A program made the translations under genes and the position numbers. This document shows positions 5,280 to 38,089 of a stretch of 64,000 nucleotides of DNA, piece after piece. Source of the stretch: Bacillota bacterium (GTDB lineage: Bacteria; Bacillota; Limnochordia; Limnochordales; DUMU01); NCBI GenBank assembly GCA_012839805.1, contig DUMU01000035.1:105296-169295 (forward strand). The letters are read 5' to 3'. Each line of letters begins with the position of its first letter. Within the stretch, counting starts at the first letter, position 1. The notes beneath the pieces are model-generated. The model did not search any database and had not been told where the DNA came from. It was given only the letters and a program-made list of their open reading frames with translations.

Positions 5280-5302
5280 GGTTAACACCTGAAAGGGGGA
5301 GC

Positions 5303-7519: not shown

Positions 7520-7538
7520 ATTTGTCCAGTGGTCAAAT
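7520..7538. promoter_or_regulatory. 19-nt near-perfect palindrome, candidate operator upstream of the ROK regulator
   Basis: ATTTGTCCAGTGGTCAAAT has 8 of 9 symmetric pairs. It lies in an AT-richer patch about 75 nt upstream of the ROK regulator start. This resembles the AT-rich palindromic operators of NagC/XylR-type ROK repressors. Confidence 0.3.
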
Positions 7539-7613
7539 AAATCTCGCTTCTCCGCCTGGTTAGTCCTGGTAATGGTGCCGGCTGCCCGGGCGAAGAAAGG
7601 GCTTGAGCTCGCG

Positions 7614-20525: not shown

Positions 20526-21413
20526 ATGACAAAGAAGATCACTGCCATGAGCGCGGGCCGCAGGGAAGCCACGACGGGGGAGGCCGTGACCGGGGATACC
20601 GGCCGAGGGGATGGTGCTCCCGAGAACCCCCGAGGCGGGACGGTCGAGGGCGAGAGCAGGGGCGAGAGTAAAGGTACGATCCTGGTGGTGGACGACGAGC
20701 CCAACGTGGTGGAGATCGTTCGCCTGTACCTGAGTCGCGAGGGTTTCACCGTCTTGACGGCCCTCGATGGTGAGGCCGCTCTGGCCCTGGCGCGGCGCAC
20801 GCCTCCTCCCGACCTGATCGTTCTCGACCTCATGCTCCCCAAAGTCGATGGGTGGGAGGTCTGCCGGCGGGTGAGAACGTTCTCCGCCGTGCCCATCATC
20901 ATGTTGACCGCCCGGGGGGAGGACATCGATCGCATCGTCGGCCTGGAGCTCGGAGCCGACGACTATCTGGCCAAGCCCTTCAACCCTCGGGAACTGGTGG
21001 CGAGGGTGAAGGCGGTGCTACGCCGTACCAAGGGAGCGCTGGTCGCGGAGACCGCGAGCCCCGGCGGTTCGGCCAAAGCGGCAGGCCACACGACCCTTCG
21101 ATACCCCGGGCTTACCATCGACCGGGAGGCCCGGGAGGTTTGGGTGCGAGACCGCCGGATAAGCCTGACCCCCAAAGAGTTCGAGCTTCTCTGGCAGCTC
21201 GCGAGCTCCCCCGGCAGGACGTTCACCCGGGAAGAGCTGCTCGAGTCGGTATGGGGTTACGAGTTCTTCGGCAGTGATCGGACGGTGGATGTTCACATAA
21301 AGCGCCTGCGGGAAAAATTGGAAAAAAGTGAGGACCTGCCGCCCTATCTGCAGACGGTCTGGGGCGTGGGGTACAAATTCGACCCTCTGGCGGGCGACCT
21401 TCGGCAGCCGTAA
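20526..21413 (+). CDS. OmpR/PhoB-family response regulator with a roughly 50-aa low-complexity N-terminal extension
   Basis: ATG 20526 lies 5 nt after TAGGAG. The receiver domain reads ILVVDDEPNVV...DLIVLDLMLPKVDG. The winged helix reads LTPKEFELLWQLASSPGRTFTREELL...TVDVHIKRLREKL. Confidence 0.9.
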   Translation: MTKKITAMSAGRREATTGEAVTGDTGRGDGAPENPRGGTVEGESRGESKGTILVVDDEPNVVEIVRLYLSREGFTVLTALDGEAALALARRTPPPDLIVLDLMLPKVDGWEVCRRVRTFSAVPIIMLTARGEDIDRIVGLELGADDYLAKPFNPRELVARVKAVLRRTKGALVAETASPGGSAKAAGHTTLRYPGLTIDREAREVWVRDRRISLTPKEFELLWQLASSPGRTFTREELLESVWGYEFFGSDRTVDVHIKRLREKLEKSEDLPPYLQTVWGVGYKFDPLAGDLRQP

Positions 21414-21597
21414 AGGTTGTGGCTCGGGGCGGTGAGGGTTTCGGGTGGGAGCGTGCGGGGTTATGGCTGGAAAGGTGAGGGACAAGGCAGGAGAGGCCGG
21501 GGTTGGGGGTAGGAGCGCCGAAGGATCTGGGTAGGAGGGTCGGGATACGAAACGAACGCTTTTCGTACGGCTTTTCGCCAGCTACCTTCTTATCATC

Positions 21598-23442
21598 GTG
21601 GTGACCGTGCTGGTCTCGGGCTCGTTGCTGTCGTATTTCGTAAGCAACTACTTGTACCGCGAACAGCGCGAACGCCTGATCGTTCAAGCACAAGAGATCT
21701 CATTCCTGGTCGGTGCGGCGCTCGCTTTGCCGGGAAGCCCGGCGGCCATGCTACGCCTGGCCGATACTTTCGAGCGGCTGCTCGGAGCGGCGGTCTGGAT
21801 CACCGACGCTAGCGGGGAAGTAGTGATCACCTCCCCGCGTTTCCGCCAGGATCGGGGGCGCCGCTTGCCGGCCGCCGAAATAGAACGGGTGCTGGCGGGG
21901 AAGACGGTAGTTCACCTGCAGTACGACCCCCAGGTGCGGGAGAACGTGTTGAGCGTGGCCATCCCCATCTGGGTGAACGGCCGTCCGGCCGGTGCGGTAG
22001 TGGTCCGCTCTCCGCTCACGGGGATGGCCGCCACCTGGCAGGGAATCCGCCGTGAGCTCGGGCGGGCCGCGCTGCTGGCGGTGGTGTTCGCGGCGCTGGT
22101 GGGGCTCACGCTATCGCGGCGCATTTCCGGGCCGGTGCGGGAGATGACCGCCGCCACCCGGAAGCTGGCCGCCGGGCAATACCGGGTGAACGTGCCGGTG
22201 CGGGGCGATGACGAACTGGCGGAACTCGCCGGGGCGATCAATGAATTATCTGAAAGGCTCGACAATACCATTGCCGCCCTCAACCGGGAAAAGAGCCAGA
22301 CGCAGGCCATATTGACCAGTATCGCGGAGGGGGTCATCGCCGCCGGCGCGCGGGGAGAGGTGCTTTTCGCCAACGGGCCGGCCCGTCGTCTCCTGGGGTG
22401 TGATGACGCCCCGGATCAGGACGGAGGGGCGCGCCTCGCAGAACTAACCGGGACGCCGGTCCGGGAAGCGGCCCGAGAGGCGCTGATGCGGGCATTGACC
22501 CAAAACCAGGCCGTGCAGATACAGGTGGAAGGGCTGGGCGGGAGGCAGCTGGCCATTGTCGCTTCCCCGGTCCGGGGAAGCGCGGGAGAGTCGCAAGGGG
22601 CGGTGGCACTGCTCCGGGACATCAGCGAGGAGATAAGGCAGGAACGGAATCGCCGGGAGTTCCTCGCCAGCGTCTCCCATGAACTGAAAACTCCCCTTAC
22701 TTCCATCCGCGGTTTTCTGCAGGCGCTGGTGGACAAGGTGGCCGGGGATGAGAAGGAGGTTCAGCGGTATCACCGGCTCATGCTGCAAGAGACGATCCGG
22801 CTGACCCGCCTGGTCAACAGCCTCCTCGACCTTTCCCGCATCGAAAGCGGGGTGCTGCAACTGCACCTCCAGCCGGTCGACCTGGGTGAACTGGCCGACG
22901 AGGCAGTAAACCAGATGCTTCCCGAAAGTGACGATAAGGGGGTAAGCCTGGAGAACAAGGTTGGCGTCGAGGAGGAATTGCCCCTCGTGTGGGCGGACCG
23001 TGATCGGGTAAAGCAAATCCTGATCAACCTTCTTGACAACGCCGTTCGGCACACGCCGGCCGGAGGCCAGGTGGAGGTGAGTGCACACCTGGTTTCGAGC
23101 AGGGGCGCAGGCCCGGGCGCGGGTGCTGACACGGAAGTGGAAGTGCACGTCCGGGACACGGGCGTGGGCATACCGGCGGAAGAGCTTCCCAATATCTGGG
23201 AGCGGTTTTATAAGGTTGACAAGAGCCGGCGCCGTTACGTGGAGGGAGACGCCGGCGGTATGAGCGACCGTAGCGGGCGTGAAGCCGCAGGCGAGGGCAG
23301 CGGCACGGGGTTGGGGCTCGCCATCGTCAAGGAGCTGGTTCTTCTCCACGGCGGCCGGTTGGGTGTGGACAGCGAGCCCGGGCGGGGTTCGGATTTCTGG
23401 TTCACGCTGCCGGTGCAGGGACCCCGCCGGCCACCAGAGTGA
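21598..23442 (+). CDS. sensor histidine kinase (TM, HAMP, PAS-like, HisKA, HATPase_c)
   Basis: The H-box is SHELKTPLTSIRGF. The N, G1 and G2 boxes are NLLDNAVRHTP, RDTGVGIP and GTGLGLAIV. The first canonical start is GTG 21598, but the frame stays open and is TM-helix-like from 21535. See the finding on the start codon. Confidence 0.9.
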   Translation: MVTVLVSGSLLSYFVSNYLYREQRERLIVQAQEISFLVGAALALPGSPAAMLRLADTFERLLGAAVWITDASGEVVITSPRFRQDRGRRLPAAEIERVLAGKTVVHLQYDPQVRENVLSVAIPIWVNGRPAGAVVVRSPLTGMAATWQGIRRELGRAALLAVVFAALVGLTLSRRISGPVREMTAATRKLAAGQYRVNVPVRGDDELAELAGAINELSERLDNTIAALNREKSQTQAILTSIAEGVIAAGARGEVLFANGPARRLLGCDDAPDQDGGARLAELTGTPVREAAREALMRALTQNQAVQIQVEGLGGRQLAIVASPVRGSAGESQGAVALLRDISEEIRQERNRREFLASVSHELKTPLTSIRGFLQALVDKVAGDEKEVQRYHRLMLQETIRLTRLVNSLLDLSRIESGVLQLHLQPVDLGELADEAVNQMLPESDDKGVSLENKVGVEEELPLVWADRDRVKQILINLLDNAVRHTPAGGQVEVSAHLVSSRGAGPGAGADTEVEVHVRDTGVGIPAEELPNIWERFYKVDKSRRRYVEGDAGGMSDRSGREAAGEGSGTGLGLAIVKELVLLHGGRLGVDSEPGRGSDFWFTLPVQGPRRPPE

Positions 23443-23692
23443 TGGGTTCGCGATCCGACACAATCCGAGAAGAGGCGGCAAGGAAGAAGCAGCCTGTTCC
23501 AGCAAGCAGGAGTGGCAATACCGGAAAGCAGTTCAATAGGCTGAAAGTTACACAAGGAAAGAGAAGGTAGCTGTCGAAGACGACCCCGGGCCGGCTGCAG
23601 GCCGGGGGGCGGGGGGCCGGAGGCCGGGCGGGCATGCGCCGGGAGCCGGCGGGACGGACGCCACTGGCCTGGAGAGAGGAGGGTCAGCGCGA

Positions 23693-26140
23693 GTGAAGGG
23701 TCGAGTGCCAGCGAATAGGCGGCTTGCCCGGGTGGTGGTCCGGCTAGCGGCGGCGTGGTTCGTCGTAACCGGGGTGCTGGCTGGCGTTGCGTGGACCTCC
23801 GCTACCTTTGTCCTTAATCACAGCCCTCTGCCCGGTCTGGTGGCCCAACGGGTCGATGCGGCGCTGGAAGCGGCTCTGGGAGAAGGATACCAAGCCGTAG
23901 TGGCAAAACCCTACTTCACGTCGCCCCGGCGGCTGATCATACCTGAAATCCGCTTGTCCACGGAGCAGGGAATGCAGGTTGCCCGGGGTAACCGGGTCGC
24001 GCTTGCTTTCCAGTGGAAGACCGTTCTCCAGGCCCTAGTAGCGCGGGCCGACGCTACCCCGGCCATTGACCGCCTCGCGGTAGGCGAGCTGGCTCTCGAT
24101 GTCGGAACTCTGCCGGCGGGAGAGTGGGGCCGGCCGGGGGAGAATGGCCGCCAATCCCGCGGCCCCGATGATCGCTGGCGCGCGGGCGGGAGCGGGGACC
24201 TTTTGGCCGGGCTAGACTGGACGAAGGTGAGGGAAAGAGTGCAGGCCCTACCGGGCTTGGTCGAAATTCACAAGCTGAGGCTGGATAAAGCCGGAAGACC
24301 CCTCCTAACCGTTTCCCGGGTTGAACTCACCGCGAAGACAAGTGGCCTGATCCTGTCATTCCAGGTGAACCCGGCGGTGGCAGCGGTGGGGGTCCCCGTT
24401 TTGGATGGCCTTACTCGATGGAGAGCGAACGTGAGTTGGCCGGGCGGGTCGACAGTTCCCCGGGTCGAGATTGAAGGAAGCCTCGTACGTGGTGGGACCT
24501 TGCTCGTTGCCGGCAAGCTCGTCCCGATCGATTCGGGAGTGCTGGCGGCGGTCTGGCCCGGGGGCCGGGCCATCGATGCGGGTGTCACGAGTGCAGGTGC
24601 AACTGCAGGCCCGGGTACGAGCGTGGGTAGAGGCGCAGGAGGGGTTCGGATAACGCAGCTTCGCCTCACGAGTGGTGATAGCTCGGTGGTGGCGAAAGGG
24701 GATATCCTTCCTGGGGAAGGAGCACGTGGCGGTCGTGACTGGAGATATCCCCGGCTGAACCTGCAGGTCCGGGCCCAGAGGGTACGGTTTCCGGAGCAAC
24801 TACCCTTCCTGGCTGCCTACGGTGTGTCCGGTACCGCTTCTTTGAGCGACGGGCATCTTACGGGGCGTTGGCCGGATCCCGTCCTCACCGGCAGGGTGTT
24901 CAGCGAAGGAGGCACGCTCTTCGGCCGGGGTTTCCGGCGGCTGGAGGGAGACATTCAAGTCGACCGTTATAGCTTTCTCTTCCGGAACACGATATTATTA
25001 GGGAAAGCAACAGTTGCCATTGGATCCAGTCATTACCGATTGAACGGAAGGTTTGTTTACCCTCGTCCCGCGGCGGGACGGCGAGGGCAGCTCGAGATTA
25101 TCATGGAGACGCAGCAAGGCAGGATTGAAGAGTGGGGGCCGGTTTTCGTTCCTTCCCTGTCCGAGCTGAAGGGGCCGGTGGCCGGGCGGCTGGAAGTAAG
25201 CGGCCTCTTGGGAGATCTGGGGGTACGGGGGGACCTGGTGGTCGCGGGAGGGACGTACCGCAACGTACCCTTTGATCGCCTCGACGCCAGGTTTTTCTGG
25301 CGGGGCGGGCGGCTGCGCCTCGAGCAGGGCAGAGTGCAGGTGGCCGGGGCAAGGGTCGATCTGCAGGGGGAGGTAAGACCTTCGGGACTGATGACGATGG
25401 AGGTGGCCGGGAAAGGGGTGCCGCTCGAGCTCTTGTGGGCGGCGGGTGTGCCGGGGACGAGCGGGCCTGCCGGGTTTAGCGATTCTTCGCGGTCTGGCGA
25501 TTTTTATGGGAGGCTGGCTCAACTAGTTCGCGAGGCGAGAGATGGGTGGTTGGCAGACCGGGCGCTCGTGGCCGGAGAGGCGGAGTTCCACGGGGAGCTG
25601 GGGGGGACGACGGCAGCGCCGGCTCTGCGGGCCAATGTCCGGTCCGGGGGAGTGAGGATAGGGCGTTTCTGGTTCGATAGCGCTGCCGGGCAGGTCTCCT
25701 GGGACGGCCGGGATTTTACCATCCCGCTTCTCGCCCTCAAGCGGGAGAACGGCGGGATGTACCAGATGACCGGCCAGGTGAAAGAACTGGCTCTGGGTAC
25801 ACCCCAGCTCGACCTGCAAGTGCGGGTGAGTGGTGAACCGGTAGACCAGTTACTGGAGCTGGTAGCCGGCGGCGGGGGCCACGTAAACGGGAGCGGGAAG
25901 TCTGGCCGGGGCGGGCCGGGCGCAGGGCTTGAGGTCCGCTTGTCGGAGCTCGCCCTGGTGAACGGCTGGGTCTACGGGGAGGCCCGAGTATCGGGGACGC
26001 TTGCCGAACCGTCGGCGAGGGCCAGCCTGACGGTAGCGCAGGGCCGGATCTTAGGCCGGGCGCTGGACGTTGCCTTGAGCCTGCGGGTAGTCGAGGGCAA
26101 AGTACGGGTTGAGCGAGTACGGTGGTCGGCGGCGGGGTAA
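23693..26140 (+). CDS. membrane-anchored beta-rich protein, TamB/AsmA-like
   Basis: GTG start 9 nt after GAGAGGAGGG. It has one N-terminal TM (VVRLAAAWFVVTGVLAGVAW). Segments of the type LTGRWPDPVLTGRVFS, VSGLLGDLGVRGDLVV, LGGTTAAPALRANVRS and VSGTLAEPSARASLTV then recur. These resemble the G-x-L-x-x-P-x-L-x-G repeats of TamB/DUF490. No HMM search was run. Confidence 0.45.
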   Translation: MKGRVPANRRLARVVVRLAAAWFVVTGVLAGVAWTSATFVLNHSPLPGLVAQRVDAALEAALGEGYQAVVAKPYFTSPRRLIIPEIRLSTEQGMQVARGNRVALAFQWKTVLQALVARADATPAIDRLAVGELALDVGTLPAGEWGRPGENGRQSRGPDDRWRAGGSGDLLAGLDWTKVRERVQALPGLVEIHKLRLDKAGRPLLTVSRVELTAKTSGLILSFQVNPAVAAVGVPVLDGLTRWRANVSWPGGSTVPRVEIEGSLVRGGTLLVAGKLVPIDSGVLAAVWPGGRAIDAGVTSAGATAGPGTSVGRGAGGVRITQLRLTSGDSSVVAKGDILPGEGARGGRDWRYPRLNLQVRAQRVRFPEQLPFLAAYGVSGTASLSDGHLTGRWPDPVLTGRVFSEGGTLFGRGFRRLEGDIQVDRYSFLFRNTILLGKATVAIGSSHYRLNGRFVYPRPAAGRRGQLEIIMETQQGRIEEWGPVFVPSLSELKGPVAGRLEVSGLLGDLGVRGDLVVAGGTYRNVPFDRLDARFFWRGGRLRLEQGRVQVAGARVDLQGEVRPSGLMTMEVAGKGVPLELLWAAGVPGTSGPAGFSDSSRSGDFYGRLAQLVREARDGWLADRALVAGEAEFHGELGGTTAAPALRANVRSGGVRIGRFWFDSAAGQVSWDGRDFTIPLLALKRENGGMYQMTGQVKELALGTPQLDLQVRVSGEPVDQLLELVAGGGGHVNGSGKSGRGGPGAGLEVRLSELALVNGWVYGEARVSGTLAEPSARASLTVAQGRILGRALDVALSLRVVEGKVRVERVRWSAAG

Positions 26141-26154
26141 AGGAGGGAGCTGCC

Positions 26155-28029
26155 ATGGCGGGCCAGGGGCGGCGGCAGGACGTAGTCCCGGAGCTCACCG
26201 CAGCTCAGTGTGAGGCACTGGGGCGCTACGGCGGGCTGAACCTGATCACTGCCATGCTGGAGGCCATCGAGAGTCGCGAACCGCTCTACCGCGGCCATTT
26301 CTCGCGAGTCTCGAGTTATTCCCGTATCATTGCCCAGGAGCTTGGTTTTGGGCCGGATCAGGTACGGGCCGTAGAGGTGGCAGGCCTCCTGCACGACGTC
26401 GGCAAGGTGGGGGTAAGCGACGATATCCTGCGGCGGGTGAACGAGCTCGAGCTGCATGAGGTCCAGCTGCTGATGCAGCATGCGGTCATCGGGGCGGCGA
26501 TAGTTCAGCGTGACCCGGCCCTGGCGGCGCTTGCTCCCCTCATTCGCCACCATCACGAGTGGTATTCGGGCGGCGGGGTTCCGGATGGTCTGGTCGGGGA
26601 GGAGATCCCCTGCGGGGCGCGGATCATCAGCATCGCCGATGCTTTCGACCTGTTGACGTCGGTCTCGCCTTTCGGGGGGCCTATCCCCTGGACTGACGCA
26701 GTGGCGCGGCTGCGGGATCTGGCCGGGAGGCAATTCTGGCCGGCCGGGGTCGAGGCCCTGGCGAACCGGGTGGCGCGAGATGCCCAGGAGGGGGCGGCCT
26801 ACGTTCGGTTCCTGGACGGTCGGATACGGCCGATTCCCGGTGTGATCGTGCCCGGCGGCCCCGGCGGTTGGGGTAGCCCGGGCGGCCCCGGCAGTGCGGC
26901 GGGCCCGGGCAGCGCGGGTAACCAGGGCGAGGCGGCCGGCCCGGCGGGCTCTGGCGGCGGGAGCCTGGCCGGCAGCAGCGGCGCGGTGGCGGCCCGAGAA
27001 CTCTGGCAGGCGGGCATCGGCATCGGCCCGCTCTCCCCCGTTCATACCCGGTCGCTGGTGGTCCTTTACCGGGTGGCCACGGCGCTCGGCGCGGTTCTCG
27101 ACCTTCGTGAGATGTTAAGCCGTGTGATTGAGATCATCCAGCAGGACGTCGGATATGCTGACGCAGCCCTGGTCCTGTTGGATCCACATCAAGACCAGCT
27201 GGTGGTGGCGGCCGGGGGCGGGAGCTATCGCTCGCAGGAAGGTTTCTGCTTCTCAGCCCAGGAGGGGTTGAGCGGGCAAGCCTTGAAACGAAGGTCGGTC
27301 GTCTATGCCCCGGATGTTACCAAAGAGCCCAGCTATCTCCCGGGAGCGATTCGGATTAGGGCGGAGGCCGCCATCCCGCTCGTCGTCGACGACCGGCCGG
27401 TGGGGGTTTTGGTCATCGGCAGCCCGCACGTGGCCGGGGTCAGGCTCGAGGATATCCAGGTGTTGCGTATGATAGCCGCTGAACTGGCCACCGCCATCGA
27501 GGTGGCCCGCCATTACCAGGAGGCGAGCACGGCGTCCACGGTGGATGGCCTCACCCAGCTCTATAATCATCGCTATTTCTGGGACCGGCTGGCCCAGGAG
27601 ATCGCCCGGGCCGAGCGGTACCAGCATCCTTTGCAGGTGGCCATACTGGATGTGGATGATCTCAAAGCCATTAATGACCAGCGGGGGCATCTGGCCGGCG
27701 ACCAGGCTTTGCGGATGATCGCGCAGACGCTGAAGGTAAATACCCGCTCATCGGATGTCCTGGCCCGGTATGGTGGAGATGAGTTCGCGATCATCTTCCC
27801 GGAGACGCCAAAGGACGGGGCCTGGCGCACGCTCTGCCGGATCGGGGACGCGCTGGAGCACGGCACTTTCGAGATCGAAGGGGTCAAAGCACGAATCAGT
27901 GGGGTGAGCTACGGGCTGGCCGGTTACCCGGAGGAAGGCCGGACCGCGAAGGAACTGGTGGCCCTGGCCGACCAGCGGATGTACGTGATGAAGCAAGCGA
28001 AGGAAGCGGGCCGAACGGCAGCGACGTGA
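26155..28029 (+). CDS. c-di-GMP signalling protein: HD-GYP-like (HD-GVP), GAF and GGDEF domains
   Basis: ATG 26155 lies 6 nt after AAGGAGGGA. The HD domain reads GLLHDVGK and HHHEWYSGGGVPDGL. A Gly/Pro linker follows, then a GAF-like region, then a GGDEF domain with an intact RYGGDEFA. Confidence 0.85.
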   Translation: MAGQGRRQDVVPELTAAQCEALGRYGGLNLITAMLEAIESREPLYRGHFSRVSSYSRIIAQELGFGPDQVRAVEVAGLLHDVGKVGVSDDILRRVNELELHEVQLLMQHAVIGAAIVQRDPALAALAPLIRHHHEWYSGGGVPDGLVGEEIPCGARIISIADAFDLLTSVSPFGGPIPWTDAVARLRDLAGRQFWPAGVEALANRVARDAQEGAAYVRFLDGRIRPIPGVIVPGGPGGWGSPGGPGSAAGPGSAGNQGEAAGPAGSGGGSLAGSSGAVAARELWQAGIGIGPLSPVHTRSLVVLYRVATALGAVLDLREMLSRVIEIIQQDVGYADAALVLLDPHQDQLVVAAGGGSYRSQEGFCFSAQEGLSGQALKRRSVVYAPDVTKEPSYLPGAIRIRAEAAIPLVVDDRPVGVLVIGSPHVAGVRLEDIQVLRMIAAELATAIEVARHYQEASTASTVDGLTQLYNHRYFWDRLAQEIARAERYQHPLQVAILDVDDLKAINDQRGHLAGDQALRMIAQTLKVNTRSSDVLARYGGDEFAIIFPETPKDGAWRTLCRIGDALEHGTFEIEGVKARISGVSYGLAGYPEEGRTAKELVALADQRMYVMKQAKEAGRTAAT

Positions 28030-28051
28030 AAATGGAACTATGGCTTCAGGC

Positions 28052-29746
28052 TCAAAGTGGATGCTGTAGCGTGTCGACGGGGGCGTAGTCGTCGGTAAGC
28101 ACTGCTGCCCGGGCGGCCAGCTCGCGTTTGTCCGTCCACTCGACATCATCTACCAGCGTGTCCGCATAGAGTTCAACCGGTTCTTGGATATCCCCTTGCT
28201 CTCGGAGTTTAGCTGCCTCTTGCTGCCAGGTCAGGCGATCCCAGCGCCGGGCGGAACGGTTGGCGATCAGGATCACGTTGCGTTCACCCCAGTCGCCAGG
28301 GCCGGACCAGCCGCCGACCGGGAAAAGGTACCAGGTCGGGAAAACTTGAGCGAAAGTGCGGGTCATGGAAGCAAGCAGGCGGGCCTTGGGGCCTGCGAGT
28401 GCTCCGATGATGTTGGACACGACCGCGCCGTCGCGGGCGAGGATAGCGTCGAGTGAACTGATGAACTCATAGGTGGTAAGGTGGTAAGGAATCGCGTCGG
28501 CGAAGTAGGCATCGACCACGATTAGATCGTAGCGCTGGGCACGGCCGGCGCGGACGGCGGCGGCGGCCTGCTCGACGAAGAGACGCCCGTCCTGAACGAT
28601 GATGCGAAGGCGGGGATCATCGGGGAGGCGGAAGAAGCGGCGGGCGACGTTCACTACTTCGGGGTCGATTTCCACCACGTCGACCTGGCGCAAGGAAGGG
28701 TAGTCGTGCAGGAAGCGGGCCGGGGCGGAGCCGCCGCCAAGGCCGATGAAAAGCATTCGTTCCGGGCGAGGGCGGGCGACCACGCCCAGATGCAGGTACG
28801 AGGTGTAGGCAAAGGCCATGCGCAGCGGGTCGTCGAGATACATGCCACTTTGGAAAGAATTGTCGAAGTGAAGGTGACGTACGCCCTGGTAGTCGTCCAC
28901 GGTGATGTGGTGGTAGAGCGTATCACGGGAGTATAGGATCGTGGCCGAACCCGGCGGGTGCGGGCTGGCCTCGATCACGACGAAGCGCCAGACCAGGACT
29001 AAAATGAGAGCGGCGAAGAGGAGCAACAGTGAGGTCAAGGAAGCGAGCCGGCTCCGGCTCGAAAGGCCGCCGTCAATCGCAATCTGGCTCGGGCGAGTGG
29101 CGGCAGGGCCTCGATCGCCATGTTTGGCGCGCGGGATGGACTGCCGGACCGGTTCGCCGGTCTCGGACGCCAGGTGCTGCCGGCGGGCGAAGGTGAGGGC
29201 GGCCGCCGCCAGGAGAAGCAGGATCAGCCCCAGCATGTGAACTATATTCCGCACGCCGAGGGCGGGGATGAGGAAAAACGAGGTGACCAGGGTGCCCAGG
29301 ATGCTGCCGGCGCTGGAAAGAGCCGAGAGGCGGCCGGCGGTCTTGCCGATGGTGGTGAGGCTCCGGCTCGCGAGTTTGACGGAGTAAGGCGAGATGGAGG
29401 CCAGGAGAGTACTGGGCAGGAAGAAAAAGGCGACGGCGGCCAGGAGCGAGCCGGCCCGGGGACCGAGGCCGGCCAGGGCCTGGTTCACGCTGGCGCTCCA
29501 GACCGGGAGGAAGCCGACCAGGAGGCCGGCCAAGGCCAGGATGAGGCCCATGACCCCCAGGCTCGGCCGGCGATCGGCCATGCGACCGCCCAGGTAGTAG
29601 CCGAGGGTGAGGGCGGCCATGACCACAGTGATGAGCGCGCCCCAGACGTAGATAGAAGTTCCGAACGTGGGGGCGAGGAGGCGGCTACCGATCATCTCAA
29701 GGCCCATCAGGACCGCACCACTCAGGAACACGATGAGGTAAAGCAC
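28052..29746 (-). CDS. fused polytopic-membrane (MFS-like)/spermidine synthase-like protein
   Basis: Lies inside ORF 28052..30262. The likely start is GTG 29746 (VLYLIVFLSGAVLMGLEMIGSRLLAP). About 7 TM helices are followed by a spermidine-synthase fold (LFIGLGGGSAPARFL...VDVVEIDPEVVNVARRFF, YDLIVVDAY). The upstream 172 codons are Pro/Arg/Gly repeat sequence and are treated as non-coding. Confidence 0.8.
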   Translation of the reverse strand: MLYLIVFLSGAVLMGLEMIGSRLLAPTFGTSIYVWGALITVVMAALTLGYYLGGRMADRRPSLGVMGLILALAGLLVGFLPVWSASVNQALAGLGPRAGSLLAAVAFFFLPSTLLASISPYSVKLASRSLTTIGKTAGRLSALSSAGSILGTLVTSFFLIPALGVRNIVHMLGLILLLLAAAALTFARRQHLASETGEPVRQSIPRAKHGDRGPAATRPSQIAIDGGLSSRSRLASLTSLLLLFAALILVLVWRFVVIEASPHPPGSATILYSRDTLYHHITVDDYQGVRHLHFDNSFQSGMYLDDPLRMAFAYTSYLHLGVVARPRPERMLFIGLGGGSAPARFLHDYPSLRQVDVVEIDPEVVNVARRFFRLPDDPRLRIIVQDGRLFVEQAAAAVRAGRAQRYDLIVVDAYFADAIPYHLTTYEFISSLDAILARDGAVVSNIIGALAGPKARLLASMTRTFAQVFPTWYLFPVGGWSGPGDWGERNVILIANRSARRWDRLTWQQEAAKLREQGDIQEPVELYADTLVDDVEWTDKRELAARAAVLTDDYAPVDTLQHPL

Positions 29747-29956
29747 CTTGGCCCTGGCTCCCCTTTCGCCGGGTTTCAGGTCGTCCCGCCCGGTTCTTGC
29801 CGGTACGAGCTGCCGGGTGTGCGAGCCGGCCGGCCTGCGGGAGAGGCCGCAACCGTCTTCGGATGTCCTCCCTTCATTCTCCTGGGGACGGGGAACTCCT
29901 GCCTGCCGGCCCGGTAGGGGCTTGTGCGCTAAGGGCCGGCCCGTGCCGCCAGGGGG

Positions 29957-30260
29957 ATGGCGTATCCTGCACCGGCCGGGTGGCTGTCGTCGGGGAGATG
30001 GCGCATTCTGCACCAGCCGGCGGCGCGGGCGGTGGTGCAAAATGCACCATCCAGGGGGGAAGCGGGGCGGCGGGCCGTGGTCCGAGATGCAGGGCGAAGA
30101 CCGGGACGGCGGCCCGGGGCCGGGATGCAGGGCCCAGACTGCGGCGTGGGCCCGGGGCCGGGATGCAGGGCGCAAACCGGGACGGCGGGGCGTGGACTGG
30201 GCCGCAGGGCGTAGGTCCGGATGGCAGGGGTGGGGGTTGGGACGCAGGCCTTGGGTCGAC
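29957..30260. repeat. degenerate GC-rich tandem array, period about 38-41 nt (two half-units of about 19 nt)
   Basis: Units begin with GATGG/GATGC at 29957, 29998, 30086, 30124, 30162, (30201), 30220 and (30241). GGCCCGGGGCCGGGATGCAGGGC is repeated exactly at 30110-30133 and 30148-30171. Confidence 0.6.
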
Positions 30261-30547
30261 ATACCATCGTTTCAACGGACTGCTAAGGATTGTTCATAGA
30301 TTGGCCACACACTCCGGCCGGGGGTTTGCTATCTTTCTAAGTGGACGATGTCCAACGCGTGGTGCGGGATACCGGCCGGGGCTAGGCGGAGGCCGGTATT
30401 GGTTTCCCGGCCGAGGCCGGTAACGGCCGGCAACAGGTAGAGACCGGATGCAGGGCTGAGGCATTCGCCGAGGCCAGCCGAGGCATCTGCCAAGGCCAAG
30501 TGATAGGCCGAGACAGGCTGGGGGACCGAGTGCAAGGGGGTACAAAC

Positions 30548-31834
30548 ATGCGGGGACTGAAGAGATGGCTAACGGGACGAGCGGCGATCGTGGCAGTCAT
30601 CGTGCTGGTGGCGTTTTTCGCCGGTGCGGCGCTGGTTAGCCAAGGGATAATGCCGGCACCGTTCGACAAGGCGCTGGGGGATGAGGCGACGAAGGAGGCC
30701 GATACCGGGACACAGGTGGGTCCGGCGGTGGCCGGAGGCGTTCAGGCCCTATCTGCGATAGGCGGCGGCGTGCCGATGACCCAGTATACGGTGGCGGATG
30801 TGGCGGATCGGGTCTCACCGTCGGTGGCCTACATCGAAGTTCACTATGCTCTGGTACAAGCAGCGAGCGGGAGGCGGACCCAGCCACGGTTCAGCGACCC
30901 ATTCGATGAGTTCTGGCGCTATTTCTTCTTCGGTACTCCAACCCCGCCGGGGTCAGCCGAGATCCCGCCTTCGGTTGGCAGTGGGGTGGTGGTTAGCCCG
31001 GACGGCTACATCCTCACCAACCAGCACGTGGTAGACGTGCCCTCCGGGCTCAAGATCGACAAGATACAGGTAAGCTTGCCAGGTTTCAACGATCCATTGT
31101 CTGCGAAACTGATCGCCTCCGACCAGCAGCTAGACCTGGCGGTGCTGAAGGTCGATTCCAACCGGCCGTTGCCGGCGGCCCGTCTGGGAGATTCCGACGC
31201 GGTCCGCGTGGGCGAATGGGTAGTGGCCATCGGGAACCCGTTTGAACTGGACCATACGGTCACGGTGGGCGTGATTAGTGCCAAGGACAGGGCAATCGAC
31301 ATCCCGGACGACCAGGGGGGCGTGCGGCCGTACAAGCACTTGATGCAGACGGATGCGGCCATCAACCCCGGTAACTCCGGTGGTCCGCTGGTCAACCTCC
31401 GGGGCGAGGTGGTGGGCGTCAACACGGCAGTGCTGGACGCCAGCCAGGGCCAGGGTATCGGTTTCGCCATCCCGATCAACGCGGCCAAGGAGATGATCGG
31501 GCAGGTAATCCGGAGCGGCAAATACGTGAAGCCCTGGATCGGCATCTCCTACGGTCCGGTGACGGATGATGTCCGGGATTACTTCGGTTTGGACAAGAGC
31601 GTCCAGGGAGTGATCGTAGGCTCGGTCACTCCGGGTAGCCCTGCGGCCAAGGCCGGCTTAAAGCCGGGTGACATCATCACCGAAGTAAACCGCCAGAAGG
31701 TGGTGGATGACGAATCCTTTGCCAAGGCCATCGCGGACATGAAAGTAGGACAGAAGATGAGCTTCCTCGTCCTGCGAAACGGGAAGCCTCAGGTACTGAC
31801 CGTGGTGGTCGGCGAGTGGCCGCAAGAGGGCTAG
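30548..31834 (+). CDS. htrA: HtrA/DegP-family serine protease with PDZ domain
   Basis: ATG 30548 lies 7 nt after AAGGGGG. It has an N-terminal TM. The catalytic triad context reads ILTNQHVV, DLAVLKV and GNSGGPLVN. The C-terminal PDZ reads GSPAAKAGLKPGDIITEVN. Confidence 0.92.
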   Translation: MRGLKRWLTGRAAIVAVIVLVAFFAGAALVSQGIMPAPFDKALGDEATKEADTGTQVGPAVAGGVQALSAIGGGVPMTQYTVADVADRVSPSVAYIEVHYALVQAASGRRTQPRFSDPFDEFWRYFFFGTPTPPGSAEIPPSVGSGVVVSPDGYILTNQHVVDVPSGLKIDKIQVSLPGFNDPLSAKLIASDQQLDLAVLKVDSNRPLPAARLGDSDAVRVGEWVVAIGNPFELDHTVTVGVISAKDRAIDIPDDQGGVRPYKHLMQTDAAINPGNSGGPLVNLRGEVVGVNTAVLDASQGQGIGFAIPINAAKEMIGQVIRSGKYVKPWIGISYGPVTDDVRDYFGLDKSVQGVIVGSVTPGSPAAKAGLKPGDIITEVNRQKVVDDESFAKAIADMKVGQKMSFLVLRNGKPQVLTVVVGEWPQEG

Positions 31835-31861
31835 GCTGGCGGTAAGAAGCAACCGATAAAG

Positions 31862-31920
31862 CAAAGCACAGCCGGAAGAGGGCAAAAGCTAGACCTCTTC
31901 CGGCTGTGCTTTGTTTTTTT
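31862..31920 (+). terminator. rho-independent terminator of htrA
   Basis: A perfect 20-bp stem pairs CAAAGCACAGCCGGAAGAGG with CCTCTTCCGGCTGTGCTTTG. The loop is 12 nt and a T7 run follows. Confidence 0.85.
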
Positions 31921-31961
31921 GCTTCCCTGCGTGGGCTGTTAGGCGATCATTGCCGTGACGG

Positions 31962-32076
31962 CGGGCTTACGGGGTTTAAGCGCCGATGGGGCTTGAGTGC
32001 TAAGGGGGCTTAAGCGCTGGTGGGCTTGAGTGCCGGCGGGCGGCGGGGCTTGAGTGCCGACGGGGCTTTCGCGAGC
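31962..32076. repeat. degenerate tandem array, period about 17 nt (GGGGCTTRAGYGC units)
   Basis: GGGCTTGAGTGC occurs 3 times (31988, 32022, 32046). GGCTTAAGCGC/GGTTTAAGCGC variants occur at 31972 and 32006. GGGCTTAC and GGGCTTTC form the ends. Confidence 0.6.
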
Positions 32077-32747
32077 CAACGGTAGCCGGTGACCCAACCG
32101 GTTGAACGTGTTACCGGCGTGGCAGGTGGGAATTGTACCTGGCTTCCCGAGCCGAGCAGGTGAAAAATGTACCCACCGGCGGGCCCGGAACTCCTGCCCG
32201 GTGGGGGTGGGGAAGGCAGGCCGGCGAAGGCCAAGCGGTCTACCAGGAGTTTTGAACGCCGAGATCCTACGGGAGCGCCCGCCTCCCCCCTGGCTTACGG
32301 CCCGTGGGAGCGTTCTCAGGAGTTGGAAGGTACATTTTTCACCCACTGTCACTTCGAAGCCAGGTGCAAAAAGTACCTGCCGGCCCGGGGCGGGGGCGAT
32401 AGCACAAGCGCGGAAGAGTGTCGGCCGATGGCCGGAAGAGCGCCGGTCGGTGGGCGGAAAAGTGCGGCCGATGCGCGTGTGCGGAAGGATGCAGGCAAGC
32501 GCTGCCGGGTTCACCAGTACTTACAACGCTTCTAGCAGCAGGAATACAGAAGCCCAGCTAGAAATCTTGTGCCCGTGAACGAGAAGGCCGGACGTTCACC
32601 CGGATCGACCTTCACCTGGATCTCCGGTGAACGCTCTGCGGCCATGGAAGGGCGGAGAGGCCAGCCAGGTCTCGGATCGGCCAAAGTGTCGCAAGATTGT
32701 ACCTTTTAGGCTTTTATAAAGTTTACCCGTCGCGTGGGCCCTCTCGG

Positions 32748-32758
32748 GAAAGGAGGTG
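32748..32758 (+). promoter_or_regulatory. SD-like element GAAAGGAGGTG deep in the leader of porin-like gene 1 (STAB-SD-like)
   Basis: A perfect anti-SD complement lies 285 nt upstream of ATG 33043. Only a 7-codon ORF follows it. The same 11-mer occurs in the leader of the paralog, at 34638. Confidence 0.3.
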
Positions 32759-33042
32759 ACCCCTGCGTGCGGAGGGCGTGGCGAGGCGGGTAAAGGGGCG
32801 CAGACGCAGTCTTCGCAGCCGCCGGGAGCGTGTGCGAGGTGAGGAAACGAGGAAACTCCCCCCGCCTGAGCTCCCGCTACGTAGCCAGGAAGGAAACAAG
32901 GTCGTTCTAAGCTTCGAGATCTATCCGCACCATTCGGAGCAGCAATAGTCGAGGCTAGATCGGCAGTTCAGAAGCTGCGTCCCGGTTTCCGGTAACTCCA
33001 ACGCAGTTCATCTACGTAGCACGCAGCACAAGGGGGATATCC

Positions 33043-34260
33043 ATGAACAAACTAGCAGCAGTTGTATCCGTCGCATTGGCCGTCGCCATGGCGGCACCGG
33101 TCGTGGCGGCCGGCCCGAGCCTGAGCGGCTCGCTCGAGGGCAAGCTCCGCTGGCAGCAGGGCGCCGAGCCTACCTCAGGTGCAAACCTTAAACTCAATCT
33201 CGGCTTCCAGGCCGGTGACAAGACCAAGGCAGTCCTCGGGCTGGCCCCGAGCATCGACGGGAATGCTTGGGCGGCCGGCATCGAGCGCATCGACGTCACC
33301 AAGGCGTACGTTGAGACCCAGGGGCCGTGGTGGAAGGGCGGTCCGGCCGTTACCACCCGCATCGGCGACCTCGACATCGATTACTCGCCGTACGTGGCCA
33401 AGATCAGCTCGACCGAGGGCCAAACCCGTGGTCTCAGCGTGAGCGGGCTTCAGGTAGGCCCCTTCGCGCTGGCCGGGTTCCATGCCTGGGACAACAACGC
33501 CGGAACGTCGCCGTCAAAGCTCCAGAACCATCAGGCGACCGGTATCCGGGTGGCCGGGCAGATCGCCGGGATCAACCTGGCGGCCACCGGCGTGATGGAA
33601 GGTGAGCGCCTATCGGGAGCCCTCGAAGGATCAACCCAGGTGCTTCCCAACGTGGCCATCGGCGGGGCGCTAGCCCGGGATGAGGCCAACCGGGCGACCA
33701 TGTACCGCATCGGTGCCCAGGTCGTACCGGTCAGCAACCTGGCGGTCATCGCCGAGTACGGTCGGGTACCGAGCCAGTTCGCACCGCTCTACGTTGACGG
33801 TGACCCGAACGGCTTCGTAGCCCAGACCCGCGGCCAGGCGGTCGTCAATCTGGGTGCTGCCACGGAGCAGGCTGGATTCCGGCTGGGCGCAGGACTCAAG
33901 ATGGCCCGGGCGGAGAACGCCGACCAGTTCCGCCGGACCGAGACCACCTTCACGGCGGCTCGTACGGTGGCTCTGCAGGGCATCCCGGTGGAGACCAGCT
34001 ACCGACTGACGATCGACGGTCAGAACAAGATGACCCACGAGATCGCCGGTAAAGCGACGCTCAACCTGATCCCTGCCCTTCAGGGCCTGACGGTCGACGG
34101 TAAAGTGAAAATGGCGGACAGCAAGATGGCCTACGGTGTCAACGCCGGTTACACTGCACCGAACGGAATGCAGTTCGGACTCCACTACGACAACGGCGAC
34201 ATCGACGGTAACGGCACCGCCGGTCTCTCCGCCGACGCCGGCCTGACGGTCAGCTTCTGA
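33043..34260 (+). CDS. putative outer-membrane beta-barrel (porin-like) protein 1
   Basis: AAGGGGGA lies 5 nt before the ATG. The signal peptide is MNKLAAVVSVALAVAMAAPVVAAG. Amphipathic beta-strand patterning runs throughout. The C-terminus is ADAGLTVSF, with a terminal Phe and hydrophobic residues at -3, -5, -7 and -9. Confidence 0.6.
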   Translation: MNKLAAVVSVALAVAMAAPVVAAGPSLSGSLEGKLRWQQGAEPTSGANLKLNLGFQAGDKTKAVLGLAPSIDGNAWAAGIERIDVTKAYVETQGPWWKGGPAVTTRIGDLDIDYSPYVAKISSTEGQTRGLSVSGLQVGPFALAGFHAWDNNAGTSPSKLQNHQATGIRVAGQIAGINLAATGVMEGERLSGALEGSTQVLPNVAIGGALARDEANRATMYRIGAQVVPVSNLAVIAEYGRVPSQFAPLYVDGDPNGFVAQTRGQAVVNLGAATEQAGFRLGAGLKMARAENADQFRRTETTFTAARTVALQGIPVETSYRLTIDGQNKMTHEIAGKATLNLIPALQGLTVDGKVKMADSKMAYGVNAGYTAPNGMQFGLHYDNGDIDGNGTAGLSADAGLTVSF

Positions 34261-34283
34261 GCCAGGTCGAGCAGGCAAAGGAA

Positions 34284-34318
34284 CAAGCCCCCGAGGGGAT
34301 CGCCCCTTCGGGGGCTTG
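34284..34318 (+). terminator. GC-rich hairpin after porin-like gene 1 (no clear U-tract)
   Basis: CAAGCCCCCGAGGGG ... CCCCTTCGGGGGCTTG lies 24 nt after the stop codon. Confidence 0.4.
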
Positions 34319-34637
34319 CCGCGCTTGTGGCGTGCGCTTGATACGTGACCGCCAGGCGGGCGCAAGCCGTCGAACATAATCGTCCCCGCCGTGCATAGCG
34401 TGAACTACGCGCCGAGGTACTTCCAGTCGGGACAATTCCCGCACGATTACGACAATTGGTCCCCCCCTTTCCGAGCTGGTCGTTTCCGGTATAATCAGGG
34501 CTGTCTGGGGCGATGAAAAATCTCTGTCAGTCCGACGAAGATCTGGCAGGAATTCACGACCCCGGATCGAATACGGGAGTGATAGTGGCCAAGGTGTTCT
34601 TGGCGGGCGAGGTCGCGGCTTCCGCCGTGCGGGAACC

Positions 34638-34648
34638 GAAAGGAGGTG
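34638..34648 (+). promoter_or_regulatory. SD-like element GAAAGGAGGTG in the leader of porin-like gene 2 (STAB-SD-like)
   Basis: The same 11-mer as at 32748, here 173 nt upstream of ATG 34821. A perfect TATAAT at 34490-34495 is a possible -10 box for this leader. Confidence 0.3.
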
Positions 34649-34820
34649 TCTTCAGTTTGGTCCGTACGGGGGTAGCGGCGAGCCGATGGCGGGCGAAGGC
34701 ATCCTGGGGTGGGAAGAGAACGAGGAAGACTTCCCGCCGGACGGGGCGGCCTTCCCAGTCAGAGGTTGTTTCGCACTCCTGCATTCCAAGTTTCCTAATC
34801 CAAACTGAGGAGGTCGAAGT

Positions 34821-36380
34821 ATGAAGCGCATCTCCCTTCTACTTGCTCTCGTGGCGGTGTTGGCGCTGGCGGGGACTGCCGCTGCGGGGCCGAACGTCTC
34901 TATCAGCGGCGAGAGCACGCTGGTCGTCTCGGGCAACACGGACGATCTCACTCCGAGCGTTGGCGGCCTCACTTTCGGAATGAAGCAGGATATCTCCATC
35001 AGTGGCGACAAGTGGTCTCTGAGCGGGAAGCTGTATCTGCCCCATTCGGCTTCCCTGAGCATCAGTGACCCGACGGAAACGAAAGAAGTGCTTACCCGCT
35101 TCTGGGTAAAGGAAGTTAACGAGGGTACCGAGGAAGCCCCGGACTACCATTACTACGTGGAGGAGCTCGGATGGGAGCTCATTCAAGTGTCTGGGAACTG
35201 GGTAGCTATCACCGGCTACGATGACGAGGATAACCCGGAGTTGGTAGAGGAGTTCTACGAAATCTACATTGACGACCAGGATAAGCCGGTCGTCGTCGTA
35301 GCTCTTGTGAGTCTCACTTACGTGAAGGATGTGTCCGGCAGCCTTACGCATGGCTCGAATCCCTGGTTCTCACTTACGAGCTGGAAGCTGACGATGGACG
35401 CCGGGGCGGCCAAGTTCGCGTTCGCCAACGGCGCCGACCTGACAGACTATGGGGATCACCTGGGCTTCATCAGCTTGGCCAAGGGTGCAAGCGGTAATCA
35501 CATGCAGGTGACCGTACCGCTTCAGAACCTGACGCTTGTCTATGATAAGGCTGGTGCCCAGGAAGGCGCCTATGTTAAGATCGCAAAGGGGGTCATCCCG
35601 GCCGAAGTCATCGGGATGTACGACGCCACCACCAGCCGGTATTCTGCGACAGTCCGCTACGACTTCGGGGGTGGACTTTGGACCGAAATCGGTGCAGTAA
35701 TGGCGCAGGGCAAGACCAACGGTGCGGGCTACGGTGCCGAGGTCAACGTACCCCTCACCCAAGACCAGTCGCTGGTCGCGTACATCGTCGGCAAGCAGTT
35801 TGGCAGCGGGTATACGGACACAGCGCTTAACGGCCGTACTGTCACGCTAGGTCAGCTGACCTACACGCAACCGCAGTACAAGGCGAAGGCGTACATCTGG
35901 ACCAAGTTCAAGGCCGACGGTTCGGTCGAGCAGCGCGATCATTATTTGGAGGGCTCTCTCGTACAGAAGGCGGGAGACCCGCTCGGCTGGTACACCGACT
36001 GGCCCTATAACAAGTATCGCAACCTGAAAGGACTTGGGCTCTACGCGAAGTACGACATCGACTCGCCGGCTCTCGTGGCTGGCCTAGGGGCGCCGGTGGT
36101 CCCGGGTAAGGCTGCACTCAAGCTCTCGAGCCCGAACCTGCTGGCGAAGGACGCCAACAATAAGGGTATCGTAGAGGTCAACGGAGAGCTTTATGTGAAG
36201 CTGAGCGACAAGCTCAACTCGGTGACTAACGTGCAGTACAAGCAGGGCACGGGTGTGACCCAGCTCCAGGATACGCTCAACTACACCGTGTCGAGCAACT
36301 CTTCGATCAGCCTAACGCTGACGAAGCCGACTAATGCCAACCGGCTGGATTACACGGCCACCTTCAAGGTCTCCTACTGA
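34821..36380 (+). CDS. putative outer-membrane beta-barrel (porin-like) protein 2
   Basis: GAGGAGG lies 7 nt before the ATG. The signal peptide is MKRISLLLALVAVLALAGTAAAG. The mature N-terminus GPNVSISGE parallels GPSLSGSLE of protein 1. The C-terminus is LDYTATFKVSY, with a terminal Tyr and alternating hydrophobic residues at -3 to -11. Confidence 0.55.
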   Translation: MKRISLLLALVAVLALAGTAAAGPNVSISGESTLVVSGNTDDLTPSVGGLTFGMKQDISISGDKWSLSGKLYLPHSASLSISDPTETKEVLTRFWVKEVNEGTEEAPDYHYYVEELGWELIQVSGNWVAITGYDDEDNPELVEEFYEIYIDDQDKPVVVVALVSLTYVKDVSGSLTHGSNPWFSLTSWKLTMDAGAAKFAFANGADLTDYGDHLGFISLAKGASGNHMQVTVPLQNLTLVYDKAGAQEGAYVKIAKGVIPAEVIGMYDATTSRYSATVRYDFGGGLWTEIGAVMAQGKTNGAGYGAEVNVPLTQDQSLVAYIVGKQFGSGYTDTALNGRTVTLGQLTYTQPQYKAKAYIWTKFKADGSVEQRDHYLEGSLVQKAGDPLGWYTDWPYNKYRNLKGLGLYAKYDIDSPALVAGLGAPVVPGKAALKLSSPNLLAKDANNKGIVEVNGELYVKLSDKLNSVTNVQYKQGTGVTQLQDTLNYTVSSNSSISLTLTKPTNANRLDYTATFKVSY

Positions 36381-36398
36381 GACAAGGGGCTCGTGGAA

Positions 36399-36426
36399 GA
36401 ACCCCCCGGCGATCGCCGGGGGGTTC
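36399..36426 (+). terminator. perfect 28-nt palindromic hairpin after porin-like gene 2
   Basis: GAACCCCCCGGCGATCGCCGGGGGGTTC lies 18 nt after the stop. There is no U-tract. Confidence 0.5.
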
Positions 36427-36979
36427 TCGCGCGTACTCCCGGCAAGGGTAGTGCCTATACGGTGAACGTTAGGAGTGCAGGGAGACCTGCGGGTGGCCCG
36501 GAGCGACCGGCAATCCAGCCTGAGAGGGCTGGCTGGGCCCGCAGGAGTCAGTAGAGGTCATAGTATCTGCGGAGGCACGAACACAGGGAAGGGCCGAACG
36601 GTGGAACAAGGGATCGAATTGGGCAAGTTCGCGAGGCGAGCAAAAAAGGGAGCCAAGCTGGAAACAGCGATCGGGGGGTGTCGCGGTTGCGCCCCTCCTG
36701 CTCGATGTCACGGGGTGAGCTCCGACGGGTGGTGGAGCTGGGCAGGAGAGGCTTGAAAAAGATAGGGCAACGGCATTAGTGGCAGCAGGAGATCGTGCAA
36801 GGGCGTCGAATGGAGCAAAGGCGCGGAAGGACGTCCGGAAGGCGCTCGCGCCGTGGTTTGACCGCTCCCGCAGGCATGTTGACGCCCAAACGTCAATATG
36901 ATGGAGAGAGGGGCTTGCGGCGGGTAGCGCCGAGCAGGGCACAAAAGGGCCCGGAGGGCATTGCGGGGAGGTAGGAGGA

Positions 36980-38089
<1,110 letters not shown>

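Follow-up and report, generated by a model that had tools for sequence, protein, structure and literature searches.

Limnochordia is the third Firmicutes lineage with a lipopolysaccharide (LPS) outer membrane, beside Negativicutes and Halanaerobiales (10.1101/2021.05.31.446380; PMC11448272; PMC10628300). For diderm Firmicutes, knowledge of the outer-membrane proteome comes almost entirely from Veillonella, in which OmpM is both tether and porin (PMC10628300), and a split derivative of the OmpM system is found in Thermotoga, whose SLH-less porin Omp-beta is encoded apart from the SLH protein Omp-alpha (10.1101/2021.05.31.446380). This study concerns two neighbouring genes, here called A and B, in a window of 64,000 nucleotides (the whole stretch analysed, to whose numbering all positions refer) from contig DUMU01000035.1 of assembly GCA_012839805.1. 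The contig measures 331 kb and belongs to a metagenome-assembled genome (MAG) from the biogas-fermenter metagenome PRJDB5067, which was deposited as 'Firmicutes bacterium'. A and B are probably two separate, lineage-specific outer-membrane β-barrel proteins of a Limnochordales-type diderm Firmicutes bacterium.

OmpM1 of Veillonella parvula (8BYT) and SlpA of Deinococcus radiodurans (7ZGX/8AGD) are, as predicted for A and B, outer-membrane barrels of diderm Terrabacteria/Firmicutes. These tether-porins carry an SLH domain and a coiled-coil stalk, whereas A and B have neither: the mature N-terminus enters the first strand directly (about 2 residues past the cleavage site in both structure models), and the tethering function is absent. 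The approximately 21 strands predicted for A also differ from the 16 of OmpM (PMC10628300) and from the much larger barrel of SlpA. Thermotoga Omp-beta resembles A and B by description, as an SLH-less porin in a diderm Terrabacterium, and no Omp-alpha-like SLH/coiled-coil gene adjoins A or B. With the general Gram-negative porins of the Porin_4 type A and B have the Sec signal and the aromatic C-terminus in common, and distant members of the A and B families reach E-values of about 1e-6 against Porin_4, but the models of A and B exceed the classical 16 strands.

Sequence features of A and B

The two genes, their Shine-Dalgarno (SD) sequences and their targeting signals are located as follows:

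33030..33037, + strand: SD sequence of A, AAGGGGGA, kept without change in five related loci
33043..34260, + strand: gene A, 405-aa precursor of an SLH-less predicted outer-membrane β-barrel protein
33043-33111, + strand: signal peptide of A, residues 1-23
34234-34257, + strand: putative β-signal of A, DAGLTVSF
34807..34813, + strand: SD sequence of B, GAGGAGG
34821..36380, + strand: gene B, 519-aa precursor of a second predicted outer-membrane β-barrel protein, unrelated in sequence to A
34821-34886, + strand: signal peptide of B, residues 1-22
36354-36377, + strand: putative β-signal of B, TATFKVSY

Both N-termini were judged by sequence inspection to be Sec signal peptides for signal peptidase I, with a Lys/Arg n-region and a hydrophobic core of 14-16 residues, followed by VAA-GP in A or AAA-GP in B with the cleavage site before the Gly. 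Neither protein contains a Cys, and a lipobox is absent. No segment of transmembrane-helix grade was found in mature A when hydrophobicity was scanned in 19-residue windows (maximum 1.11), and no such window of mature B was above the threshold, the maximum being a borderline 1.60 within the insertion described below. The period-2 hydrophobic moment was above that of 500 shuffled sequences for both A (z = 4.1) and B (z = 2.9), and helical periodicity was not. No SLH domain was matched in either protein at E ≤ 1 in Pfam, nor was any other wall-anchor domain (CWB2 or LPXTG) at the same threshold. An earlier first-pass annotation of this DNA had described two reading frames of 405 and 519 aa with strong SD sequences, Sec signal peptides, no Cys and no SLH motif, and this description is exact to the coordinate. 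The alternating β-strand patterning that it had noticed corresponds to the significant period-2 moment.

At both C-termini hydrophobic residues occupy positions 0, -2, -4 and so on to -10. The last eight residues of A (D-A-G-L-T-V-S-F) match exactly the β-signal pattern polar-x-G-x-x-hydrophobic-x-aromatic, and those of B (T-A-T-F-K-V-S-Y) end in an aromatic residue but are without the Gly of that pattern. The first-pass annotation had called both C-termini β-signals for the β-barrel assembly machinery (BAM); the aromatic end and the alternating hydrophobic residues bear this out for both proteins, and the missing Gly qualifies it for B. A terminal F or Y was found in 12/12 sequences of the A family and 22/22 of the B family, that is, in all 34 collected. 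Of all open reading frames (ORFs) of at least 150 aa in the window, only A and B have a signal peptide together with an aromatic last residue and the general look of an outer-membrane protein.

Predicted fold

AlphaFold2 models were built from shallow alignments, with 7 sequences for A and 9 for B. The model of A has low confidence (mean predicted local distance difference test, pLDDT, 57) and is made entirely of antiparallel β-hairpins with about 21 strands. The model of B is of moderate confidence (pLDDT 69, with residues 190-519 mostly at 70-92), has about 24 hairpin strands, and includes a separate small β domain at residues ~90-160 (pLDDT ~70). When the models were compared with the PDB by Foldseek, the top 50 matches out of 50 were membrane β-barrels, of outer-membrane or mitochondrial origin, for A and for B alike, with E-values down to 1e-5 and 2e-8, respectively. 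The matches of the two models included PapC/FimD ushers, LptD, OprD/Occ, MOMP, chitoporin, VDAC, OmpU and TonB-dependent receptors. MOMP (5ldt) was the second-best match of model A, which also matched Deinococcus SlpA/SDBC (7zgx, 8agd) and Veillonella OmpM1 (8byt); the SlpA/SDBC chains matched model A only, and not B. These all-β meanders, and the absence of any β-sandwich among the 100 top matches, agree with the β-barrel that the first-pass annotation had expected. Its figure of 14-18 strands does not agree with the models, which give about 21 for A and 24 for B at low to moderate confidence.

Almost all of the sub-threshold Pfam signals across the two families came from outer-membrane barrel models (SlpA_C, Porin_4, OMP_b-brl and HP_OMP). 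A itself matched SlpA_C (PF21620) at 16.7 bits, far below the cutoff of 35, and B gave no match to it; three of the 12 A-family members also matched this model weakly (best E-value 3.8e-6). Weak matches to Porin_4 (PF13609) were obtained for 2/12 A-family members (best 1.4e-6) and for 1/22 B-family members, the distant relative P0031 (26.8 bits against a cutoff of 27), and A and B themselves did not match Porin_4 at E ≤ 1. One of the 12 A-family members had a sub-threshold match to OMP_b-brl. The all-β hairpin models, the barrel-only lists of Foldseek matches and these Pfam signals argue for the outer-membrane β-barrel reading. The assignment of A and B to this class, rather than to S-layer or wall β-sandwiches, is a well-supported prediction; a closed barrel and the strand numbers of the models are putative.

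The best-scoring PDB matches were PapC, FimD and LptD, which might point to translocon-type barrels of the usher or LptD kind. The sequence identity in these matches is about 10% and the TM-score at most 0.43, A and B have no plug, no N-terminal jellyroll and no N- or C-terminal periplasmic domains, and no chaperone, pilin, lptE or lptA genes are nearby. The high rank of ushers and LptD is most simply due to barrel size. A translocon role is scarcely credible for either protein, and an identity as usher or LptD was rejected, as the accessory domains and nearby partner genes are missing.

Family relations and distribution

A and B had been taken for a paralogous pair in the first-pass annotation, but are not detectably paralogous. 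BLASTP of A against B gave E = 1.9, and in profile-profile comparison by hhalign, with both narrow and broad family alignments, the match was confined to 38 columns, which span the signal peptide and the first strand. The likeness of the two proteins at their N- and C-termini is that of targeting and closure motifs and is no evidence of common descent.

The A family consists of six clusters in an index of 5.8 billion proteins, and these six proteins were also all that a profile search retrieved. It is present in 10 species-level genomes; a scan of the GTDB species genomes gave 11 loci with the A1 alignment and no relative with the A2 alignment. Exhaustive scoring with hidden Markov models found 20 representatives of the B family among 1.84 billion proteins. 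The named homologues of A and B, near or distant, are from Limnochordales, Limnochordaceae, Limnochordia or unclassified Bacillota MAGs. The novelty here is modest but concrete: two unannotated, clade-restricted, SLH-less barrel families, of which the A family has a conserved association with genes for sugar import and the B family varies strongly in the manner of a cassette.

Two contigs labelled Bacteroidota and Betaproteobacteria (PRJNA950955) also carry relatives, with the A-B pair on one (L005) and a porin-LacI-solute-binding protein (SBP) locus on the other (L014). Their labels are probably the result of mis-binning or mislabelling, because the loci are typical of Bacillota/Limnochordia MAGs. 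A low-GC MAG deposited as 'uncultured Bacillus sp.' (L015, at 5142-8271 of that locus) has two tandem, very distant A-like genes of 519 and 517 aa, one copy of which retains the family motif GDLAISYSPY and ends in F; either the genome is a diderm one under a wrong label, or the family may be more widely distributed.

Host lineage and the outer membrane

The closest relatives of the A/B locus identify the host as Limnochordales-type, which places it in one of the three diderm Firmicutes lineages that the first-pass annotation had listed. By lineage, it was very probably correct in concluding that this is a diderm organism; the conclusion is not new, because Limnochordia had already been described as a lineage with an LPS outer membrane. 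Three further genes had been cited there in support, of which the first is:

23693..26140, + strand: TamB/AsmA-like protein, 815 aa, membrane-anchored by an N-terminal transmembrane segment; Pfam TamB 24.7 bits, cutoff 22.4

This gene is syntenic with the A-B locus in relatives and its product diverges fast, with 36% and 29% identity to the proteins of Limnochordales Bu89 (L006) and Limnochordaceae Bu26 (L007). As support for an outer membrane it holds in that it passes the Pfam cutoff and is syntenic, but it passes only narrowly. The AMIN-like domain is below its Pfam cutoff (21.2 against 27 bits), is located in a NamZ protein and is not diagnostic. The HtrA protein described as periplasmic has an N-terminal membrane anchor and one PDZ domain, and its gene lies downstream of a WalRK-like two-component system. 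This is the classical Gram-positive arrangement and no evidence for a periplasm.

Several observations weigh against A and B as outer-membrane barrels of a diderm cell. The Foldseek TM-scores were just 0.2-0.43, and the model confidence was low for A and moderate for B. Neither protein was above any threshold in Pfam or NCBIfam (which bears out the earlier remark that the families are so far undescribed, as both are unnamed in databases), and single-protein and profile searches found no meaningful sequence relatives in the PDB. In the ~70 kb of the contig that were read (positions ~161-232 kb), neither ompM nor any of the biogenesis genes bamA, skp, lpx and lpt was found. Limnochorda pilosa, the cultured type species, was not among the genomes matched by family A, and the link to sugar uptake discussed below is one of gene order in just two effectively independent clades.

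The modest model confidence and the lack of a BamA or LPS gene in the ~70 kb read would also fit a monoderm cell in which A and B are secreted or wall-associated β-sandwich proteins with coincidental C-terminal motifs. This is very improbable: no SLH, CWB2 or LPXTG element was detected at E ≤ 1, the terminal F/Y is kept throughout the 34 sequences, the 100 top fold matches were all outer-membrane barrels, and the lineage is a known diderm one with a syntenic TamB-like gene.

Allelic replacement of B

The region of B that differs between near-identical strains and the insertion within it are:

34896..36775, + strand: hypervariable cassette, comprising the coding sequence of mature B and its 3' flank, replaced between near-identical strains
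35037..35330, + strand: acidic insertion (~98 aa; residues 73-170 of B) that separates predicted strands 3 and 4

The window was compared with L018, a strain from the independent assembly SRR28822772. DNA homology of 96-98% extends to 34895, where the coding region of the signal peptide ends, and is regained from 36776 on, within the leader of msmX, the gene to the right of the locus. The four proteins compared between the window and L018, with their synonymous (dS) and nonsynonymous (dN) divergence, were as follows:

A: amino acid identity 98.5%, dS 0.045
MsmX: amino acid identity 100%, dS 0.019
ROK: amino acid identity 98%, dS 0.048
B: amino acid identity 42-47%, dS 1.38, dN 0.53; the L018 allele has 432 aa and is without the insertion

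A third strain, L022, carries a B allele 90% identical to that of the window (dN/dS 0.20). The B allele of L019 is 60% identical to window B and has the same insertion, though A is just 67% identical there, so that the relationships of B are discordant with its flanks (L019 B 60% and A 67%; L018 B 42-47% and A 98.5%). As the B tree disagrees with near-identical flanks, the divergence of B is one of allelic replacement by recombination and not of acceleration in place. The acidic insertion is restricted, by alignment gaps, to B alleles of 507-520 aa, and from strand parity in the model we infer that it may be an extracellular loop domain.

A partial group II intron element was also observed. 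The Rfam model group-II-D1D4-1, which covers the 5' part of domain I, matched 36511-36594 (+) at 57.7 bits (gathering score 35), and no other group II intron domain was detected around it by Rfam; for this reason it is regarded as an intron remnant. It sits in that part of the 3' flank of B which is specific to the strain and which in relatives is occupied by a major facilitator superfamily (MFS) gene; the only strain to share it is L022, which has the same type of B allele.

Divergent alleles between near-identical flanks are also found at Neisseria porB, Campylobacter porA/MOMP and the Clostridioides difficile slpA cassette, which are hypervariable major surface-protein loci of other families and hosts. 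The cassette-like replacement with saturated dS, the large and variable acidic surface insertion, and a model of ~24 strands, larger than classical porins, together with SlpA/SDBC chains among the fold matches of A only, would suit a B that is a structural or surface-array barrel, an adhesin or a receptor, S-layer-like as Deinococcus SlpA but without the SLH stalk, and not primarily a diffusion pore. We regard this as unlikely. B has no lattice, SLH or coiled-coil element, and a distant member of the B family touches Porin_4. Major porins such as Neisseria PorB and Campylobacter MOMP moreover show similar hypervariability.

Gene neighbourhood and a possible link to sugar uptake

The conserved right neighbour of the locus is:

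36980..38089, + strand: MsmX/MalK-type sugar ATP-binding cassette (ABC) transporter ATPase; Pfam ABC_tran, OB_MalK and TOBE

Downstream of A and B the window has the genes of MsmX, phosphoglucose isomerase (PGI) and ROK glucokinase, and in most relatives an MFS transporter is interposed. The order HtrA-A-B-(MFS)-MsmX-PGI-ROK is kept in six relatives (L005, L006, L007, L018, L019 and L022), and the longer order TamB-like, HD-GYP/GAF/GGDEF, SpeE-like, HtrA, A, B, (MFS), MsmX is common to the window, Bu89 and Bu26. The MsmX of the window is 96% identical in Bu89 and 90% in Bu26. The divergence of A keeps pace with that of HtrA (67%/60% against 67%/64%). In a second, divergent clade (L009, L010, L012, L013 and L014), A-family members of ~500 aa, ~30% identical to A, are found in the order AspK-porin-LacI-SBP-permease-permease-MsmX, and the MsmX that closes the LacI-SBP-permease loci (L009-L013) is 71% identical to that of the window. 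As genes of the A family thus precede those of sugar ABC importers and msmX in each of two divergent clades, their gene order suggests that A-family barrels may serve in carbohydrate entry. The arrangement of malK and lamB in E. coli is an analogue of the A-family/msmX gene order: there too, the gene of an outer-membrane channel adjoins that of a MalK/MsmX-type ATPase, and there is no family relationship.

A narrower role, that of a substrate-specific carbohydrate channel (as LamB, ScrY or OprB) for the adjacent MsmX-energised ABC importers instead of a general porin, is possible for A, though we would not favour it. The LacI, SBP, two permease and MsmX genes that follow the A-family gene in five loci speak for such a role, as do the MsmX, PGI and ROK glucokinase genes downstream in the window. 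The five loci are, however, closely related, so that they amount to effectively two observations, each gene has a terminator hairpin of its own, and A is kept even where the transporter genes are missing. No match of A or B to LamB, OprB or sugar-porin families was obtained in Pfam at E ≤ 1.

Farther upstream, positions 20526-31834 hold, in order, a response regulator, a WalK-like histidine kinase, the TamB-like gene, the HD-GYP/GAF/GGDEF gene, the gene of a SpeE-like membrane protein (minus strand) and HtrA. The other context genes named in the first-pass annotation (glnRA, tsaE/B-rimI, PemK/MazF, the his operon and ROK) are all present. Two glutamine synthetase genes were found, one at 6004-7332 (+) after a MerR/GlnR-type regulator and the other at 19113-20444 (-), alone beside a two-component system. 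In the his operon a 545-aa ORF (57750-59387, +) has GATase and His_biosynth domains and is followed by a separate His_biosynth gene; from its domain sequence it is a possible HisH-HisA fusion. Two ORFs were rejected as spurious, one of 76 aa on the minus strand that lies between A and B (34554-34784) and one of 183 aa at 29748-30299, because gene calls disagree between assemblies and the composition is Arg/Gly-rich.

Regulatory and non-coding elements

The following candidate elements flank the two genes:

32749..33042, + strand: 5' leader of A, probably structured, with a long-range 9-bp helix 32795-32803 / 32975-32983 (RNAalifold)
34284..34318, + strand: GC-rich hairpin after A that resembles a terminator, with a core stem of 15 bp and without a U tract, -46.2 kcal/mol, z = -4.4
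34490..34495, + strand: perfect TATAAT hexamer, putative -10 element, 326 nt upstream of the B start codon
36398..36427, + strand: perfect palindromic GC hairpin after B (a self-match), no U tract, -43.2 kcal/mol, z = -5.7

The z-scores were computed against shuffled sequences, and both hairpins are within 25 nt of the stop codon. The non-coding stretch upstream is 1208 nt for A and 560 nt for B. A sigma-70 promoter scan of 31800-37000 gave no match, and the TATAAT hexamer was left unreported because it has no good -35 element. Each gene had been described earlier as monocistronic with a long leader and a terminal hairpin; the upstream gaps and the hairpins are there, which makes the monocistronic reading and the long leaders plausible.

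The leader of A is conserved in four lineages with A proteins of just 60-67% identity, and RNAalifold predicts a hairpin around GAGGAAAC...CUC in it, with a few compensatory changes. No Rfam family matched the leaders of A and B. The A leader may be mRNA-stabilising or regulatory. Roughly 480-510 nt before A lies a palindromic block, TTCTAGCAGCAGGAAT...CCAGCTAGAA (32530-32563, arms TTCTAGC/GCTAGAA), that is shared without change by L005, L006 and L007. It has no other copy in the window and could be an operator or a hairpin. In the same HtrA-A intergenic region a segment of 319 nt (32040-32358) is present in this strain and absent from the otherwise 90-96% identical L018, and no second copy of it was found in the window or the fetched relative loci.

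Proposed pathway and significance

On the favoured explanation of A and B as two separate outer-membrane barrels, Sec would export each precursor and signal peptidase I would cut after the VAA (A) or AAA (B) motif seen in it. The proteins would traverse the periplasm unfolded, and their C-terminal β-signal, ending in the conserved aromatic residue (F in A, Y in B), would be recognised by the BAM machinery, which would insert them into the LPS outer membrane. There they are predicted to fold as large up-and-down barrels, an assignment supported at the level of class, with the ~21 and ~24 strands those of the models. A is the conserved partner, distantly related to the OmpM/SlpA-type and Porin_4 barrels and evolving at the rate of its neighbours, and by its context is most likely a diffusion channel feeding sugar ABC importers. 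B would be a surface-exposed barrel whose external parts, including the ~98-aa acidic loop, may be under diversifying or frequency-dependent selection, and recombination between the coding region of the signal peptide and the msmX leader would swap whole alleles. This is the pattern typically seen in major surface proteins that phages or predators target. The first-pass annotation had called A and B abundant-looking and major porins; both their abundance and their function as diffusion channels are putative.

Diderm Firmicutes are the main model for the loss of the bacterial outer membrane, and the locus adds two unannotated barrel families for Limnochordia, the least-studied of the diderm lineages. 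The families could be used as outer-membrane marker genes in MAGs and are candidates for channel assays. The strain-level replacement of the B cassette speaks for strong selection at the cell surface in biogas/compost communities, with phages as its probable agents. More tentatively, the principal outer-membrane channels of Limnochordales, instead of or besides OmpM, may be unusually large SLH-less barrels of ~21-24 strands that belong to the two clade-restricted families, and B may be a dominant phage- or predator-targeted surface protein that is swapped as a cassette, with the signal-peptide region and the msmX leader as recombination anchors.

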